Shown piece by piece: positions 3,418 to 37,318 of a stretch of DNA of 64,000 bases. The DNA comes from a phage: NCBI GenBank assembly GCA_018093385.1, contig GCA_018093385.1_4808.1, one strand, 5' to 3'. The notes under the pieces were generated by a model. It had not been told where the DNA came from. It saw nothing but the letters and a program-made list of their open reading frames with translations, and searched no databases. Made by a program: the position numbers and the translations under genes. Every line of letters starts with the position of its first letter. Position 1 is the stretch's first letter.

Positions 3418-3759
3418 TTAATTTCTTTTGAGAGGAATATGACGGTGGCTGCCATTATTTGGTTTAATAATGAGCATAAAAACGATTAGAAAGATGATGG
3501 CTGATATACTTAATTCAATCAGCGCGGCTTGAGATATAGATTGATCTTCATGATACTGCTTTTGCATTTCTGCTTTCTTCTGAGCGCAAACTTCAGGTGA
3601 TATGTAATCGCCTTTTGAGTTGCCATAATAAATTTCGCCATTCTCAGAAATAAGCCTGCCGCAAATATCCGTTTCAGCCTGTGCGCTTGACATCATAATA
3701 ACAGTTCCGATGATAGCGGCGATAGTCCAGATTAACAGTTGTGATAAAGTGTTGTTCAT
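3418..3759 (-). CDS. small membrane protein (likely start at internal Met, MNNTLSQ...)
   Basis: Strong RBS AAGAGG 5 nt upstream of ATG at 3759; N-terminal hydrophobic segment plus C-terminal hydrophobic segment; track ORF extends to 3849. Confidence 0.45.
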   Translation of the reverse strand: MNNTLSQLLIWTIAAIIGTVIMMSSAQAETDICGRLISENGEIYYGNSKGDYISPEVCAQKKAEMQKQYHEDQSISQAALIELSISAIIFLIVFMLIIKPNNGSHRHIPLKRN

Positions 3760-4207: not shown

Positions 4208-4400
4208 ATGTGCTGCCGCTTGTTTCTCTATTTAGCAGGTATCTGCCGCGCATTCCATGAAGGCTGAATTCAACCGTCGATGGATTAGATTTTGAAAGCC
4301 ATATAGGCTGCCCGTCGAATGGACCGCCTACGCATGTATATTTCGCTTTTGGCTCACTCCTTTTGGGCTGTTTTGCCCGCTCTTTTATTGATAGTCTCAT
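4179..4400 (-). CDS. hypothetical protein (73 aa)
   Basis: ORF in track; overlaps neighbours by a few nt as in operons. Confidence 0.4.
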   Translation of the reverse strand: MRLSIKERAKQPKRSEPKAKYTCVGGPFDGQPIWLSKSNPSTVEFSLHGMRGRYLLNRETSGSTFVEWKENGK

Positions 4401-4615
4401 CAGTCTTCACCTTGAGATTCCAGACAAGTAAGGACAAGCCACGTCATCGGAAGAATCAAAACCAGAGAAATGAGGGACCAGATAGACCAGCACAAGATGA
4501 CAGACTTGAATGTGTGAACGTCGCCAAACGCAGCAGTAAAACAGAATCCCATTACAAATGCAATAGCTGTGGAATGGTTATCTATGGCTTTGATGGCACG
4601 GTCGATGAGTTTCAT
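4400..4615 (-). CDS. small membrane protein (71 aa)
   Basis: Two hydrophobic segments (FVMGFCFTAAF, ILCWSIWSLISLVLILP). Confidence 0.4.
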   Translation of the reverse strand: MKLIDRAIKAIDNHSTAIAFVMGFCFTAAFGDVHTFKSVILCWSIWSLISLVLILPMTWLVLTCLESQGED

Positions 4616-32701: not shown

Positions 32702-33346
32702 ATGATTAATGCAAACGTAATATCTAAAGGGACCGGATGCAGCATGGATGTTGCTGAAAAATGGGTCGACCCCTTCAAGCAGGCTTGTGAGCACTACGGA
32801 ATCAAAAGCAAGAATGCCATCGCGGCGCTGCTTGCAAACGTAGGAGTGGAAACAGGCAGTCTGAAGACCTTTGTGGAAAACCTGAATTATTCCGCTCAAG
32901 GTCTTGCTAATACGTGGCCTAGCCGTTACAGCGCCAGCGGTCGTTTCGGTGGCGCACCAAACTCCTTGGCATTGTCGATTGCCCGTAAACCAATGGAAAT
33001 CGCCAATAATACATATGCAAACCGAATGGGAAATGGTTCGGTAGCATCTGGCGACGGTTGGAAGTACCGTGGCCGTGGTGCCATTCAGCTGACTGGAAAG
33101 GACAACTATGCAGAGTATTCAAAGCAATCAGGGTATGACGCATTGAATAACCCTGACATTTTGACTGAGCCGAAATACATTGCTGACAGCGCGGCATGGT
33201 TCTTCAAGAACAGCGGTTGCATTCCACTTGCCGATGCGGGCGCATTTGATTCGACCGTGAAGCGGATTAACGGGGCCGCGCCAAATACGGCTAACCATGG
33301 GGATTTGCGACGGAAGCGTTACAAGGGAGCACTAGCAGTTATGTAA
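32702..33346 (+). CDS. endolysin, glycoside hydrolase family 19-like
   Basis: YRGRGAIQLTGKDNYAEY motif characteristic of GH19; RBS AAGGTGA. Confidence 0.75.
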   Translation: MINANVISKGTGCSMDVAEKWVDPFKQACEHYGIKSKNAIAALLANVGVETGSLKTFVENLNYSAQGLANTWPSRYSASGRFGGAPNSLALSIARKPMEIANNTYANRMGNGSVASGDGWKYRGRGAIQLTGKDNYAEYSKQSGYDALNNPDILTEPKYIADSAAWFFKNSGCIPLADAGAFDSTVKRINGAAPNTANHGDLRRKRYKGALAVM

Positions 33347-33380
33347 GAAAAAGGCCCATATGGGCCTTTGTTTATTTTAC
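33346..33380. terminator. bidirectional rho-independent terminator
   Basis: GGCCCATATGGGCC hairpin flanked by A-run and TTTGTTTATTTT between convergent genes. Confidence 0.65.
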
Positions 33381-33602
33381 GGCTTCAACCTGGACGGGCG
33401 GCGCGGAACTTGTATCAATGTCTGGCAAGTCGAAGTAATACCCCGCCATGCCAATCACGCCAACAATCGCGGCCCGTGCCACCTTGTTGCTAATTGACTC
33501 CCCAATAAGCTTTACCAACAGGGACAAGATTTGAGACGTCAAAGCCTTTTTCAGCCTTTTGTTTTCTTCCAAATCTTTCTGCATAACTACCACCCATGTC
33601 AA
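33372..33602 (-). CDS. small membrane protein (holin candidate, unproven)
   Basis: 76 aa with one hydrophobic helix (AAIVGVIGMAGYYF); adjacent and convergent to endolysin. Confidence 0.35.
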   Translation of the reverse strand: MTWVVVMQKDLEENKRLKKALTSQILSLLVKLIGESISNKVARAAIVGVIGMAGYYFDLPDIDTSSAPPVQVEAVK

Positions 33603-34141
33603 CGCACATCCTGTGTCTTAACATTACCTGAAGCATCTCTTAAGGGCAGTGGATAGTAGGCCATTTGGTAGTCTGATACGCCTTCAACATGATAAAACAC
33701 GATTACGTCTTTGCTGTTGATGAGCATGTTAACGACATCTGATTTATCTTCTGGAGTGAGTATGAGTGCGCCGCCTGTCCTGCTGTCTACTGCAACAGGG
33801 TATGTCTTGTCGACAAGGCCGCTGTCCAATGTATTATACCTGACAACGATTTCAGGGGCATCAACTTTTGCAATTGACATTCCGAACACAAACGACACGA
33901 CTTGGCGACCGCGATCATTCATTACGCACATCTTTTCCTTGTCAAACCTTTCCTTTATCACATCGTATTTGTTCCAGCAAAATTCGAACGATTGACCGTT
34001 GTTAAAATATCTCGTTAACACTTTGGCATTACTATTTGGCGGCGTAAACATACTTTCAGCCGCTGCACTTTTGGTGAAGAACAAAACTGTCAGCATAGCC
34101 ATGATGATGATCAAAACGATCTTTAAATTTTTCGATTTCAT
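33599..34141 (-). CDS. secreted/periplasmic protein
   Basis: N-terminal signal peptide-like MKSKNLKIVLIIIMAMLTVLFFTKSAAA. Confidence 0.5.
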   Translation of the reverse strand: MKSKNLKIVLIIIMAMLTVLFFTKSAAAESMFTPPNSNAKVLTRYFNNGQSFEFCWNKYDVIKERFDKEKMCVMNDRGRQVVSFVFGMSIAKVDAPEIVVRYNTLDSGLVDKTYPVAVDSRTGGALILTPEDKSDVVNMLINSKDVIVFYHVEGVSDYQMAYYPLPLRDASGNVKTQDVR

Positions 34142-34219
34142 TATAATTCACCTTTTGATTACGAATATTAATAGTATAGGCCGAAGGTTTTGAAAGTAAA
34201 TAAGGCGAAAGGTAAATAA

Positions 34220-34247
34220 AAGAAAAGCCGGAGATTTCCGGCTTTAT
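34220..34247. terminator. rho-independent terminator (bidirectional)
   Basis: GCCGGAGATTTCCGGC hairpin flanked by A-run and T-run. Confidence 0.6.
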
Positions 34248-34317
34248 GTATACACTGTATGTTAAATTCTATAAAACGACGCGATAGATTATCCGCACCA
34301 ATTATTTATCTAGTGTC

Positions 34318-35295
34318 TTAAAAATACTCCATATCGGTAATATCACGGAAGCATTTATACAAAGCAGAGCGCGGCACATCAACAATGCCAAAGTTAAAGA
34401 ATTTATACGTTAGATATTTATCGCGATAGTTCTCGCGATTCTCCCAAAGCATTTTTCTCTCTGCCATAGGCATTGAACCAGCGGATACGCGGAAAGGAAT
34501 CATCTCACCTTTTTCATCCACATATTTTGGATTGACGACTACGAATGAGCCAAGGTGTCCTTTCGCAACTAAACCTTCAGCCTCTTTTGAACGCTTGGTG
34601 CGACCCAATTCGTCAATGAATGCTTCGTTGTTGTTCTCCATCATCTCAACGAAGTCTATGATCAATCCTTCTTCATCGGTCCACGGCTTGTCCTTCCACA
34701 CATCACGTGACTTCGGCGTCGCGCGGCCATGCTTGTATTTGCCCGTCCAAGACTTGCCATACAAGCCTTCATATCCAAGCTGGTCTGCTTCGATTTGCAT
34801 CGCCGCGTACTGTTCCATATTTTCGATGTTTCGATATTCGAGAGCGCGAAGGAATGGGCGTCGACCATGGTTGATGAGATGTTGATTAACTTCAGCAACT
34901 CTAGCTCGATAGTTTGCATAACGCTTTTCAAAAGGCAGATCAGGTTCGCTAAAGTCATCAAACACCCACCATGTAAAGTTAGTGATTGCATCAGTGTTCA
35001 TGCATGCAGTATAGGCCTGTTGCATGACGTTCTTGTCATTTGGATTGCCGTCGATTAGCTCTCCATCAAGTCCGTGAATTAATTCACCCAAGAAGAGGAA
35101 CTCTTTTTTGATTTGAATGTTGCGCAGCGCCATGCCGGACGTGCCCATTGGCAAGTTGTCATACGCCATTGCGCGTATGCCATCGACCTTGAATGACAAT
35201 CCGCAAGGCAGCGGCACGTCTTCGCCGCGCTCGATTATTTGCTTACGCTGGCAACCCTTCATTGGTTTTAATGCTTTGATTTCTCCTGCCATCAC
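34318..35295 (-). CDS. ATP-dependent DNA ligase
   Basis: Adenylation motif I FKVDGIRA (K-x-D-G-x-R); 325 aa. Confidence 0.8.
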   Translation of the reverse strand: MMAGEIKALKPMKGCQRKQIIERGEDVPLPCGLSFKVDGIRAMAYDNLPMGTSGMALRNIQIKKEFLFLGELIHGLDGELIDGNPNDKNVMQQAYTACMNTDAITNFTWWVFDDFSEPDLPFEKRYANYRARVAEVNQHLINHGRRPFLRALEYRNIENMEQYAAMQIEADQLGYEGLYGKSWTGKYKHGRATPKSRDVWKDKPWTDEEGLIIDFVEMMENNNEAFIDELGRTKRSKEAEGLVAKGHLGSFVVVNPKYVDEKGEMIPFRVSAGSMPMAERKMLWENRENYRDKYLTYKFFNFGIVDVPRSALYKCFRDITDMEYF

Positions 35296-35885
35296 TCAAA
35301 CTCCTTATTCATCACTTGTTCCAGCGCATAGGCGTAAGCCTGATCAGTCGATTTGATAAACGTGCCGTTGTACATGACGCCTTTGCGGTCTTTGATGTCT
35401 TCGTAGGCAGCTTGCGCACAGTCGGATAAGCGAAGGCCATAATCATGAGCTACGCCGGAAAGGTAATCGACTGCGGCCATGATGGTGACGTCAATATCCA
35501 TGGTTTGATTCTTGGCAATAGCATCACCAAGTCGTCCAAGGGTCTTTGCCAGGCGAAGGATAAATGAATGAGGGTGAGCGCCTTTATCAGCGCAACCGCC
35601 GCCATTAATGTTTTCGATTTCAGCACCGTTTTGCGCTGCCAGGATGGTCAACACGACAAGGCAATCGCCAATGTCGTCCTTAATTGCGGCTTGCAAGTCA
35701 CAGATGGCCTGCTCTGTATATCCAATTTCGGGGTCGAAGAACACAAGGTCATGGAGTTGATCAACGTGGTCGGTCAACTCCCCAAACTCGCTGATAAGCT
35801 TCGGGTATTGGTCCTTAAGGTCGCAACCTTGGATGATGTTACGGTCAGAAGCCCACTGGCGAATGTTTGCATAAATCTGGTTCAT
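35292..35885 (-). CDS. MazG-like nucleotide pyrophosphohydrolase
   Basis: KLISEFGELTDHV and IGDCLVVLTILAAQNG resemble the MazG EExxE / GD-x-L helix motifs. Confidence 0.45.
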   Translation of the reverse strand: MNQIYANIRQWASDRNIIQGCDLKDQYPKLISEFGELTDHVDQLHDLVFFDPEIGYTEQAICDLQAAIKDDIGDCLVVLTILAAQNGAEIENINGGGCADKGAHPHSFILRLAKTLGRLGDAIAKNQTMDIDVTIMAAVDYLSGVAHDYGLRLSDCAQAAYEDIKDRKGVMYNGTFIKSTDQAYAYALEQVMNKEFE

Positions 35886-36400
35886 TTATTTTCCTTTGAT
35901 GCATTGAATTGATCGATTTTTATTTTAGCCTGATTATAAGTATCAATCAAGCTATTAACTTTCTCTTTTAATCGGCTTGTTTCTGCGGCGAACTGAACAA
36001 GAAATCTGACATCTCCTTCTGATAGTCCACAGTTTCCTTCTGGGATAGAGAGGCGTCCAGTGGTCGCAGAGTCGGGCATACTCCTGAGTAACTCACGGGA
36101 GCAGCTGAGTTGCGCGCGCAGCTTGATATTCCCAGACTTGTAACGAGCAATAGTGTCATCAGCAACCAGTTGCGCTTCCTGGCGACCTTTCTCATATGCC
36201 GATGCCGATTCAACCTGTAAAGATGCAATTTGCTCTTCGAGTGCATTTATCTTGTCCTTACGCTCATTCAGCGATGTCAGATATTGGTTATCCTTGGCCA
36301 GTGATGCGTTGGTTTGCTGCAGGTCTTCAACGTATGATCCAGCGGCAAACGCGCCAACAAGGGCCAGAATCTTCAGGAGCGGTACAATTCTTTCTATCAT
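35882..36400 (-). CDS. i-spanin (Rz-like)
   Basis: N-terminal TM helix (IVPLLKILALVGAFAAGSYV) followed by coiled-coil-rich periplasmic domain; contains an embedded lipoprotein ORF. Confidence 0.5.
   Translation of the reverse strand: MIERIVPLLKILALVGAFAAGSYVEDLQQTNASLAKDNQYLTSLNERKDKINALEEQIASLQVESASAYEKGRQEAQLVADDTIARYKSGNIKLRAQLSCSRELLRSMPDSATTGRLSIPEGNCGLSEGDVRFLVQFAAETSRLKEKVNSLIDTYNQAKIKIDQFNASKENK
35968..36195 (-). CDS. o-spanin (Rz1-like) embedded in i-spanin gene
   Basis: Alternative frame entirely within 35882-36400; MRKVARKRNWLLMTLLLVTSLGISSC lipoprotein signal with lipobox; Pro-containing short mature part with a second Cys. Confidence 0.5.
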   Translation of the reverse strand: MRKVARKRNWLLMTLLLVTSLGISSCARNSAAPVSYSGVCPTLRPLDASLSQKETVDYQKEMSDFLFSSPQKQAD

Positions 36401-36410
36401 GATGCACCAG

Positions 36411-36440
36411 ATAAATAAAAGGCCGCCAATCGGCAGCCTT
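36411..36440 (-). terminator. rho-independent terminator
   Basis: Minus-strand hairpin GGCUGCC-GAUU-GGCGGCC followed by U-run. Confidence 0.5.
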
Positions 36441-36457
36441 GTTGATTTGATTGTCGA

Positions 36458-37318
36458 TTAAAACTCTTCTGCGTCGGCAGGAGTTTCATTGACAGGACCA
36501 GCGGCACCGCTTGCTTCTTCCTGCTTGCTGCGGTCGATGTTAACGTTGCCGCCCACTACGTCATTGTGGAATGCCTTGGCGACTTCGTACAGACCTTTGT
36601 CCTGCACCAGACCTTCCAGCTCAAACTTCAGAACGGACCAGGTGTTGCCGTCTTTGGACTGGGATGCAGTACCCATGCGAACGATGTTCATAAAGGTCGG
36701 CGGCGTTTTCAAACCTTGCGGAGTTTGAACTTTCTTCTGCTGCAGCGCGGTCATCAGCATACGAGACGGCTTGATCATCGAAGAAGTCAAAGACAGCATG
36801 GCGCTGCCAAATTCACCCGTTTCTTCGTTCAACAGAATCACGAAGTGGTTACGTGTATCTGCATAGTAAGGAGATTTCTTCTCGTGCACTTTGCCGTTTT
36901 CGTCCGGCACAAATACCTTACCGTTGATCTCAACAGCGCGGCCTGCCGCGACTTCTGCATCAACGTGCTCTTTGGTGAATTCACCTTTAAAGCCTTTGTC
37001 GTCGGACTCGCGACCGCCCCAAAGAATGAAGGTACGTTTGAATGCGCAAGGGATGATCTGCACGCCTTTCTTACCGTCATACAACTCACCAGTAACGGTG
37101 TTGTAAAGCATGCCAGCTTTTGCGCCAGGAACGTGTTTTGGATCATCTTCGTCGACCATAGGAGACATCTTCTGCAGTACGACGATAAAAGGAATGGCAT
37201 ATGCATCGGCATCGGCACCTTCAAAACCAGCGCCAAAATCGGTCATGTCGACAAAATCAGCCATAGCGGACATCTGGGTGTTTTTCACTGCAACTTCGGT
37301 AGTTTCTTTCTTAGACAT
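36458..37318 (-). CDS. putative ssDNA-binding protein (T7 gp2.5-like)
   Basis: Acidic C-terminal tail ending in Phe (ETPADAEEF); location in replication operon. Confidence 0.4.
   Translation of the reverse strand: MSKKETTEVAVKNTQMSAMADFVDMTDFGAGFEGADADAYAIPFIVVLQKMSPMVDEDDPKHVPGAKAGMLYNTVTGELYDGKKGVQIIPCAFKRTFILWGGRESDDKGFKGEFTKEHVDAEVAAGRAVEINGKVFVPDENGKVHEKKSPYYADTRNHFVILLNEETGEFGSAMLSLTSSMIKPSRMLMTALQQKKVQTPQGLKTPPTFMNIVRMGTASQSKDGNTWSVLKFELEGLVQDKGLYEVAKAFHNDVVGGNVNIDRSKQEEASGAAGPVNETPADAEEF

Follow-up and report, generated by a model that had tools for sequence, protein, structure and literature searches.

A probable embedded Rz/Rz1-type spanin pair, set apart from the endolysin gene, in a Wifcevirus genome

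The prototype of the two-component spanins is the Rz/Rz1 pair of phage lambda, which has an embedded, +1-frame architecture, as does the locus described here. Kongari et al. 2018 (PMC6139136) include the ECML-117 pair in their embedded two-component spanins, treat ECML-117 and PY54 as separate singleton families, and assign the PB1 group to the unimolecular spanins. The same paper describes a disulfide rule for spanins and shows that in T4, pseT.3/pseT.2 are not linked to either t or e, its holin and endolysin genes (Fig. 8 legend, PMC6139136). We tested a locus on the minus strand of a 64,000-nucleotide stretch of phage DNA (the window) against this class, that is, a two-component spanin of embedded architecture (Summer 2007; Kongari 2018). 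The window is from a Wifcevirus, a PB1-like E. coli myophage, and its locus at 35882-36400 very probably encodes a lambda Rz/Rz1-type two-component spanin in the embedded arrangement.

Database records place the locus in a well-populated group of close relatives. It is 98.2% identical to that of Escherichia phage HermannAdler_Bas98, and the pair is kept at 95-98% identity in all 29 related Wifcevirus records. In the records of Bas98-101, an "Rz-like spanin" and an "o-spanin" are annotated at exactly these positions. The Mansfield record (Center for Phage Technology) has an "i-spanin" and an "o-spanin" with a ribosome-binding site for each, and its annotation cites Swiss-Prot I7ATQ8 of ECML-117, a phage whose i-spanin is 97.7% identical to the one in the window. 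The embedded spanin pair is therefore a rediscovery, as it was already annotated and published. A literature search found no papers on Wifcevirus lysis genes, spanin experiments, or transcription timing. In about half of the Wifcevirus records the i-spanin is labeled "hypothetical," and the embedded o-spanin is missing from most. Such records can be corrected with the present coordinates, though the pair has little importance beyond such annotation hygiene.

Features of the two overlapping genes

The outer gene (35882..36400, minus strand) is an open reading frame of 172 amino acids with an ATG start, and it is annotated in both Bas98 and Mansfield. A Kyte-Doolittle scan placed a hydrophobic N terminus at about residues 5-24, followed by acidic, polar sequence. 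Codons 5-24 (36329..36388, minus strand; IVPLLKILALVGAFAAGSYV) are predicted to encode a signal-anchor transmembrane helix, and a hydrophobic N terminus is common to all aligned i-spanin homologues. The AlphaFold2 single-sequence model, of moderate confidence (mean pLDDT 68.9), is almost wholly helical, with helices at residues 5-88, 94-114, and 128-170 and a central linker at 115-127, which fits what is expected of a spanin periplasmic domain. Cys100 is invariant in all seven aligned sequences, and Cys124 is present in six of the seven; both are predicted to be periplasmic. We found no solved structure similar to the i-spanin.

Profile searches placed this protein among the spanins, in part by way of its relatives. 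Against PHROG, the i-spanin matched phrog_1327, "Rz-like spanin" (E = 4.1e-25), with residues 6-160 aligned to positions 9-156 of the 158-position profile. Neither the i-spanin nor two other Wifcevirus members matched Pfam PF03245 (Phage_lysis, Rz) at E <= 0.1, and no NCBIfam model was matched by the i-spanin or the o-spanin. Four distant homologues, from phages PY54 and P744 of Yersinia, LIET2 of Pantoea, and Mica of Burkholderia, do match PF03245 (best E = 6e-17). As the i-spanin has no direct Pfam or NCBIfam match, its membership in the Rz family rests on PHROG and on transitive homology, by which it is predicted to be a divergent member of the Rz superfamily. A family profile also aligned to lambda Rz over the GN.RLR..C motif (E = 1.4e-4).

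Wholly inside the i-spanin gene, in the +1 frame, is the o-spanin gene, which encodes 92 amino acids from ATG 36246 (35968..36246, minus strand). This reading frame is offset by 154 nt from the i-spanin start and covers 0.30-0.83 of the i-spanin length; its sequence includes ...LLMTLLLVTSLGISSC. The product begins with a very basic N terminus, followed by a hydrophobic core (LLMTLLLVTSLG). A PROSITE-type lipobox pattern matched LLVTSLGISSC, in which the lipobox I-S-S-C (36118..36129, minus strand) contains Cys43 (36120..36118). The residue after Cys43 (+2) is Ala and not Asp, which is compatible with sorting to the outer membrane. The mature protein has 49 amino acids, with four prolines and one further cysteine, C57, which is invariant in all five aligned o-spanins. 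Together with C100 and C124 of the i-spanin, this conserved cysteine, all three being predicted to be periplasmic, would fit the disulfide rule of PMC6139136.

The o-spanin could start at either of two in-frame codons, and the mature protein is identical from both. Eight nucleotides upstream of ATG 36246 is a Shine-Dalgarno-like AAGGA (36255..36259, minus strand), and the Mansfield record has a ribosome-binding site at the corresponding position. Counted from this ATG, the lipobox cysteine is at position 43, beyond the usual range of 15-35. The alternative start, ATG 36195 (M18), gives a product of 75 amino acids spanning 0.40-0.83 of the i-spanin length, with the cysteine at position 26 and a canonical 26-amino-acid signal peptide, as long as those of the homologues. 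No Shine-Dalgarno sequence is found upstream of it. The embedded product gave weak matches to PHROG o-spanin families (E = 0.025-0.07) and no match in Pfam, including the Rz1 family. When all six frames of the window were scanned, no second coherent lipobox reading frame emerged.

These features agree with the original prediction, which was made from the letters of the sequence. It had described a 172-amino-acid protein with an N-terminal transmembrane helix and a coiled-coil periplasmic domain; the hydrophobicity scan agrees with the former, and the AlphaFold2 model gives a helical periplasmic domain. The second element, a reading frame with a lipoprotein signal and the lipobox LGISSC, is wholly contained in the first and matches the lipobox pattern, and the short, proline-containing mature region is as described. 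The prediction had been made dependent on a lipobox found by prediction and on a translation initiation signal for the embedded frame; the pattern match ending in Cys43 supplies the former and the AAGGA 8 nt before ATG 36246 the latter. The embedded i-spanin/o-spanin layout is further borne out by the phrog_1327 match, by homologues in both frames, and by public annotation.

Genomic setting and expression

The spanin genes are part of a minus-strand block of replication and nucleotide-metabolism genes, arranged as DNA polymerase, helicases, genes like Pam3 gp33 and gp34, spanins, MazG, and ligase. The genes for the MazG-like pyrophosphatase (35292..35885) and for the ATP-dependent DNA ligase (34318..35295), the last of the spanin-MazG-ligase block, were identified as minus-strand reading frames with profile matches. 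The MazG ATG overlaps the i-spanin stop (ATGA), and the ligase start overlaps the MazG stop, both by 4 nt. These stop/start overlaps indicate likely translational coupling of the i-spanin, MazG, and the ligase. The block is followed by an intrinsic terminator after the ligase gene (34224..34245, minus strand), found by a terminator scan and annotated in Mansfield. A second intrinsic terminator (36419..36440, minus strand; also found by the scan and in Mansfield), with a 9-bp stem, six G-C pairs, and a T-rich tail, is located 19 nt upstream of the i-spanin ATG. A sigma70 scan found no convincing promoter after this second terminator, and regional matches were no more common than in shuffled sequence.

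In lambda, the spanins have no effect before the murein is degraded, and on that model their expression together with middle genes would be tolerated. A different reading is that the pair is functional but is a late gene, transcribed from its own phage-specific promoter just upstream, so that its separation from the endolysin would be physical and not temporal. This is possible, though we consider it doubtful. The strong terminator 19 nt ahead of the i-spanin ATG would stop the transcript coming from upstream, and the related Pbunavirus 14-1 has non-sigma70 promoters with a CTGGG core near the start site (PMC10914365); CTGGTG is present between the terminator and the i-spanin ATG. However, the CTGG resemblance is a five-letter match, the sigma70 scan detected no promoter, and the coupled MazG and ligase are not typical late functions. 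We favor co-expression of the pair with MazG and DNA ligase on the replication-gene strand, not with the endolysin. Early or continuous synthesis of the spanins would be harmless, as they depend on prior degradation of the murein.

The tail operon ends with the endolysin gene (32702..33346, plus strand). This gene is annotated, and its product is of the GH19 type, matching phrog_181 (E = 5e-69) and PF00182 (30.6 bits; cutoff, 25.5); it has no signal or SAR sequence. The usual, though not defining, position of spanins is beside the holin and endolysin. In the window, the endolysin and the spanin reading frame are 2536 nt apart on opposite strands, in line with the distance of about 2.5 kb first proposed. 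Because the endolysin and the spanins belong to operons on opposite strands, they are necessarily on different transcripts. The suggested dispersal of lysis functions across two transcription units thus held, with the endolysin ending the plus-strand tail operon and the spanins in the minus-strand block. Such an unlinked position is unusual compared with lambda but has a precedent in T4. All candidate lysis genes are within about 3.7 kb around the convergence of the two transcription directions.

The original prediction had also noted that no clear holin was adjacent, and to the letter this is correct. No holin family was matched, and neither the Bas98 record nor the examined parts of Mansfield name a holin. 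However, a gene for a 70-amino-acid homologue of PA1-LRP (33372..33584, minus strand; phrog_5165, sequence match) adjoins the endolysin gene, converging with it at 25 nt from its stop. Between the two is a hairpin terminator (33350..33369), found by the terminator scan and annotated on both strands in Mansfield. Over 50 residues, the product shares 54% identity (E = 2e-13) with PA1-LRP from Pantoea phage PA1; the PA1-LRP sequence was taken from Supplementary Table S2 of PMC11538084. The LRP-like gene is kept beside the endolysin in Pbunavirus DL68 (gp62), Serratia WR01 (Myosmarvirus), and Xanthomonas XcP1 (Carpasinavirus). PA1-LRP has a hydrophobic region but no predicted TMD; when overexpressed, it is reported to be toxic, inhibiting growth alone, and to enhance killing and assist lysis from within when co-expressed with or fused to the endolysin of phage PA1, a homologue of the one in the window (PMC11538084). 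By analogy, the gene at 33372..33584 is the best current candidate for the missing membrane-permeabilizing step, as a holin-like lysis helper.

Three other minus-strand reading frames were nominated as holins by Kyte-Doolittle analysis and then rejected, as none had a holin match in PHROG, Pfam, or NCBIfam. They encode 71 amino acids with two hydrophobic segments (4400..4615), 113 amino acids with a signal plus a TMD at the C terminus (3418..3759), and 180 amino acids with a signal peptide (33599..34141). All three were left hypothetical by the lysis specialists who annotated Mansfield. The window also contains no homologue of phrog_1544, the 3-TMD "holin" of Pbunavirus and Serratia phages. 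The lysis set of the genus would comprise a GH19 endolysin, replication-coupled spanins, and a small PA1-LRP-like protein where a recognizable holin would be expected, and we see this set as the more useful by-product of the analysis. Separately, BASEL isolates of Wifcevirus now grow on derivatives of E. coli K-12.

The place occupied by the spanins, between the gp34-like gene and MazG, holds other genes in sister genera. In XcP1, the slot contains a gene for a 199-amino-acid protein that has TMDs at its N terminus and a coiled coil and, after it, one for a 108-amino-acid lipoprotein (phrog_11951, "Rz-like spanin"; E = 7e-21); by their predicted features, these look like a separated spanin pair. 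In DL68 and WR01, it contains a gene for a 201-amino-acid, cysteine-free glycine-zipper protein that has two TMDs at its C terminus (phrog_1544), labeled "holin" in WR01. Such differences in gene content point to a probable non-orthologous replacement at a conserved position. A wider reading, which we think rather unlikely as a whole, is that the gp34-like/MazG slot is an exchangeable "envelope-lysis slot" in the replication operon of the PB1-like supergroup. It would hold embedded spanins in Wifcevirus, separated spanins in Carpasinavirus XcP1, and the 3-TMD phrog_1544 protein in Pbunavirus, Myosmarvirus, and Pantoea PA1. The Wifceviruses would have lost the 3-TMD protein and, having no canonical holin, would rely on the PA1-LRP-like protein, with spanins made from middle and not late transcripts. 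Were this so, there might be a connection with the latent period of Wifcevirus, which is reported to be very short.

An exchangeable slot, with unrelated membrane-protein genes in sister genera, could also mean that the spanin pair was recently acquired and is dispensable or redundant, the outer membrane being disrupted by a disruptin or a unimolecular spanin. Pbunaviruses do have a u-spanin elsewhere in the genome (PMC6139136), for which DL68 gp11 is a candidate, with a lipobox (IAWAC), a C-terminal TMD, and a position far from the gp34-like/MazG slot. We nevertheless find redundancy of the pair highly improbable, since the window contains no other lipobox or u-spanin-like reading frame, the pair is retained in every one of the 29 Wifcevirus records, and the locus has no compositional anomaly of the kind that recent acquisition of a spanin cassette might leave. 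The 113-amino-acid protein (3418..3759) was considered as a decayed u-spanin related to DL68 gp11, to which it has no similarity.

Conservation of the embedded reading frame

The decisive evidence for a predicted o-spanin in the embedded frame is that the +1-frame product is homologous to known o-spanins. A +1-frame lipobox reading frame is found at the same relative position in all four distant homologues (PY54, P744, LIET2, and Mica). In the alignment of the five o-spanins, the lipid-bearing cysteine, a C-P pair, an Asp, and M-x-x-F-L-F are invariant. The comparison with PY54 shows stronger conservation in the +1 frame than in the outer one, with 51% identity over 55 residues between the embedded o-spanins (E = 1e-17) and 29.5% identity between the i-spanins. 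By the invariant columns of the two alignments, the most conserved motif of both proteins is encoded by the same nucleotides (35995..36013, minus strand). These specify D130-V-R-F-L-V135 of the i-spanin, in which D, F, and L are invariant, and M79-S-D-F-L-F84 of the o-spanin, in which M, F, L, and F are invariant.

The layout alone is only modestly improbable (p about 0.02). Among 20,000 synonymous recodings of the i-spanin, 2% had a lipobox reading frame in an alternative frame and 10.6% had an uninterrupted stretch of 92 codons or more. As a null model this is weak, since much of the inner frame is already set by the sequence of the outer protein. Variation among close relatives was examined in seven Wifcevirus sequences, all of which have the inner reading frame and its lipobox intact. 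There were 30 variable sites, with 12 synonymous changes and 1 non-synonymous change in the i-spanin outside the overlap. Substitutions within the overlap were mostly non-synonymous in both frames, with 3 synonymous and 14 non-synonymous in the inner frame. This pattern is compatible with a constraint from the overlap; at such short distance it shows no clear sign of purifying selection. As this test of dual-frame selection was not decisive, we relied on the distant homologues instead.

We give hardly any credence to the reading that only the 172-amino-acid protein is real, as a coiled-coil protein anchored in the membrane that works by itself or for the replication module, with the lipobox reading frame as a by-product: the gene does sit between replication genes, the recodings retain such a frame at the rates given, and inner-frame changes among close relatives are mostly non-synonymous, but the +1 frame outdoes the outer frame in identity to PY54, the same-place lipobox and invariant downstream motifs recur in five lineages, the frame is unbroken in all seven Wifcevirus sequences, and a correctly spaced Shine-Dalgarno sequence precedes the o-spanin ATG.

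Proposed action of the pair and comparison with known spanins

With both frames taken as coding, we infer the topology, complex formation, timing, and function of the pair from its sequence features, two-frame homology, synteny, and existing annotation. The 172-amino-acid i-spanin would insert in the inner membrane via its N-terminal helix (N-in, C-out), with two helical segments and a flexible linker reaching into the periplasm. The o-spanin would be translated from the internal start in the +1 frame and then exported, lipid-modified at Cys43, and cut by signal peptidase II, and the Ala at +2 would direct it to the outer membrane. The C-terminal parts of the two proteins would bind each other, and C100 and C124 of the i-spanin and C57 of the o-spanin may form intermolecular disulfides. 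The complexes would span the periplasm and stay inert while the murein is intact. Once the GH19 endolysin had destroyed the murein, they would fuse or disrupt the outer membrane, and lysis would be complete.

The nearest known systems are within the genus. ECML-117, Mansfield, and Bas98-101 have the same genes, with i-spanins 95-98% identical to that of the window and few amino acid substitutions. The embedding of the o-spanin and the neighboring genes (gp34-like, MazG, and ligase) are laid out identically to the window. The closest relatives outside Wifcevirus are PY54 ORF63, LIET2, P744, and Mica, in which the i-spanins are 25-30% and the o-spanins 41-51% identical to those of the window. 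The i-spanins of this group and of the window have the conserved motifs TIA.Y..GN.RLR..C and CG....D..FLV in common. The PY54 and Mica pairs come directly after the holin and endolysin genes in a canonical cassette, unlike the pair in the window.

Like lambda Rz, the i-spanin of the window is predicted to be a type II inner membrane protein whose periplasmic part has two helical segments joined by a linker, although the similarity between the two is too low for a direct Pfam match. In both systems the partner would be a small outer membrane lipoprotein, periplasmic cysteines are expected in both subunits, and the motif GxxRLxxxxxC is present. The mature o-spanin of the window has 49 amino acids, compared with 40 in lambda Rz1, and is much less proline-rich (4 of 49 residues). 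The lambda pair is part of a holin-endolysin-spanin cassette with a late promoter, whereas the pair in the window is coupled to MazG and ligase. In T4, the spanin genes for PseT.3/PseT.2 are likewise in a nucleotide-metabolism neighborhood. The T4 genes have a separated architecture and unrelated sequences, however, whereas those of the window are embedded.

Annotation and upstream region of the spanin genes

The i-spanin gene (35882..36400, minus strand) is listed as a hypothetical protein in about half of the 29 public Wifcevirus records, and the o-spanin embedded in it (35968..36246, minus strand) is annotated only in Mansfield and Bas98-101 among these records. RefSeq re-annotations of Wifcevirus name the i-spanin and leave out the o-spanin.

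A strong intrinsic terminator (36419..36440, minus strand) lies only 19 nt 5' of the i-spanin start codon, and no recognisable sigma70 promoter follows the terminator. CTGGTG is present in this short spacer and bears a faint likeness to CTGGG, which is the reported core of phage-specific promoters in Pbunavirus 14-1 (PMC10914365).

Small membrane, exported and lysis-related candidates

Convergent with the endolysin gene is a phrog_5165 gene encoding 70 aa (33372..33584, minus strand), whose product is homologous to PA1-LRP (54% identity, E=2e-13). PA1-LRP is a "lysis-related protein" of Pantoea phage PA1, whose overexpression causes toxicity and potentiates the endolysin (PMC11538084). Homologues keep the endolysin-adjoining position in Pbunavirus, Myosmarvirus, and Carpasinavirus, and the gene and its homologues are annotated as hypothetical everywhere. 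Between this LRP-like gene and the ligase terminator, a 180-aa ORF (33599..34141, minus strand) has a cleavable-looking signal peptide (…TKSAAAES) and weak similarity (E=0.001) to the same-position protein of Serratia phage WR01. The 600 nt around it (33800..34400) form the G+C minimum of the region (0.35-0.39 versus about 0.46-0.50).

Heading the minus-strand block that diverges from the large terminase gene, a 71-aa ORF (4400..4615, minus strand; Bas98_0115 / CPT_Mansfield_019) has two hydrophobic segments and an acidic C terminus; its size and topology are holin-like, and it has no family match. Immediately upstream of the second tail-fibre gene, a 113-aa ORF (3418..3759, minus strand; from MNNTLSQ...) has a signal-like segment at the N terminus, a TMD at the C terminus, and a basic tail; this predicted topology resembles that of a u-spanin. 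Its product lacks a lipobox and shows no similarity to the u-spanin candidate of Pseudomonas phage DL68, gp11.

Spanin genes and their positions in other phages

DL68 gp11 (132 aa; L018:5501-5899) has a C-terminal TMD in addition to a signal of the lipoprotein type (IAWAC), and it probably corresponds to the unimolecular spanin that Kongari et al. assign to the PB1 family. It is unannotated in RefSeq and falls in phrog_4999, "unknown function." Yersinia phage vB_YenM_P744 encodes a homologous Rz-like spanin (L010:2501-2962), in which the embedded +1 lipobox ORF has no ATG start. The genes preceding the spanin gene encode a helicase and an exonuclease, not an endolysin, and vB_YenM_P744 provides a second example of a spanin gene amid replication genes.

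We compared the slot flanked by the Pam3-gp34-like gene and MazG (35882..36458 in the window) with those at L005:7789-8394, L006:7940-8545, and L007:7942-8869 in other phages. Wifcevirus has embedded spanins there, Xanthomonas phage XcP1 has what is probably a separated spanin pair, and Pbunavirus and Serratia phages have a 201-aa Gly-zipper/2-TMD protein (phrog_1544). The phrog_1544 protein is labelled "holin" in Serratia phage WR01. Across these phages, the slot looks like a fixed position whose contents are swapped by non-orthologous replacement.
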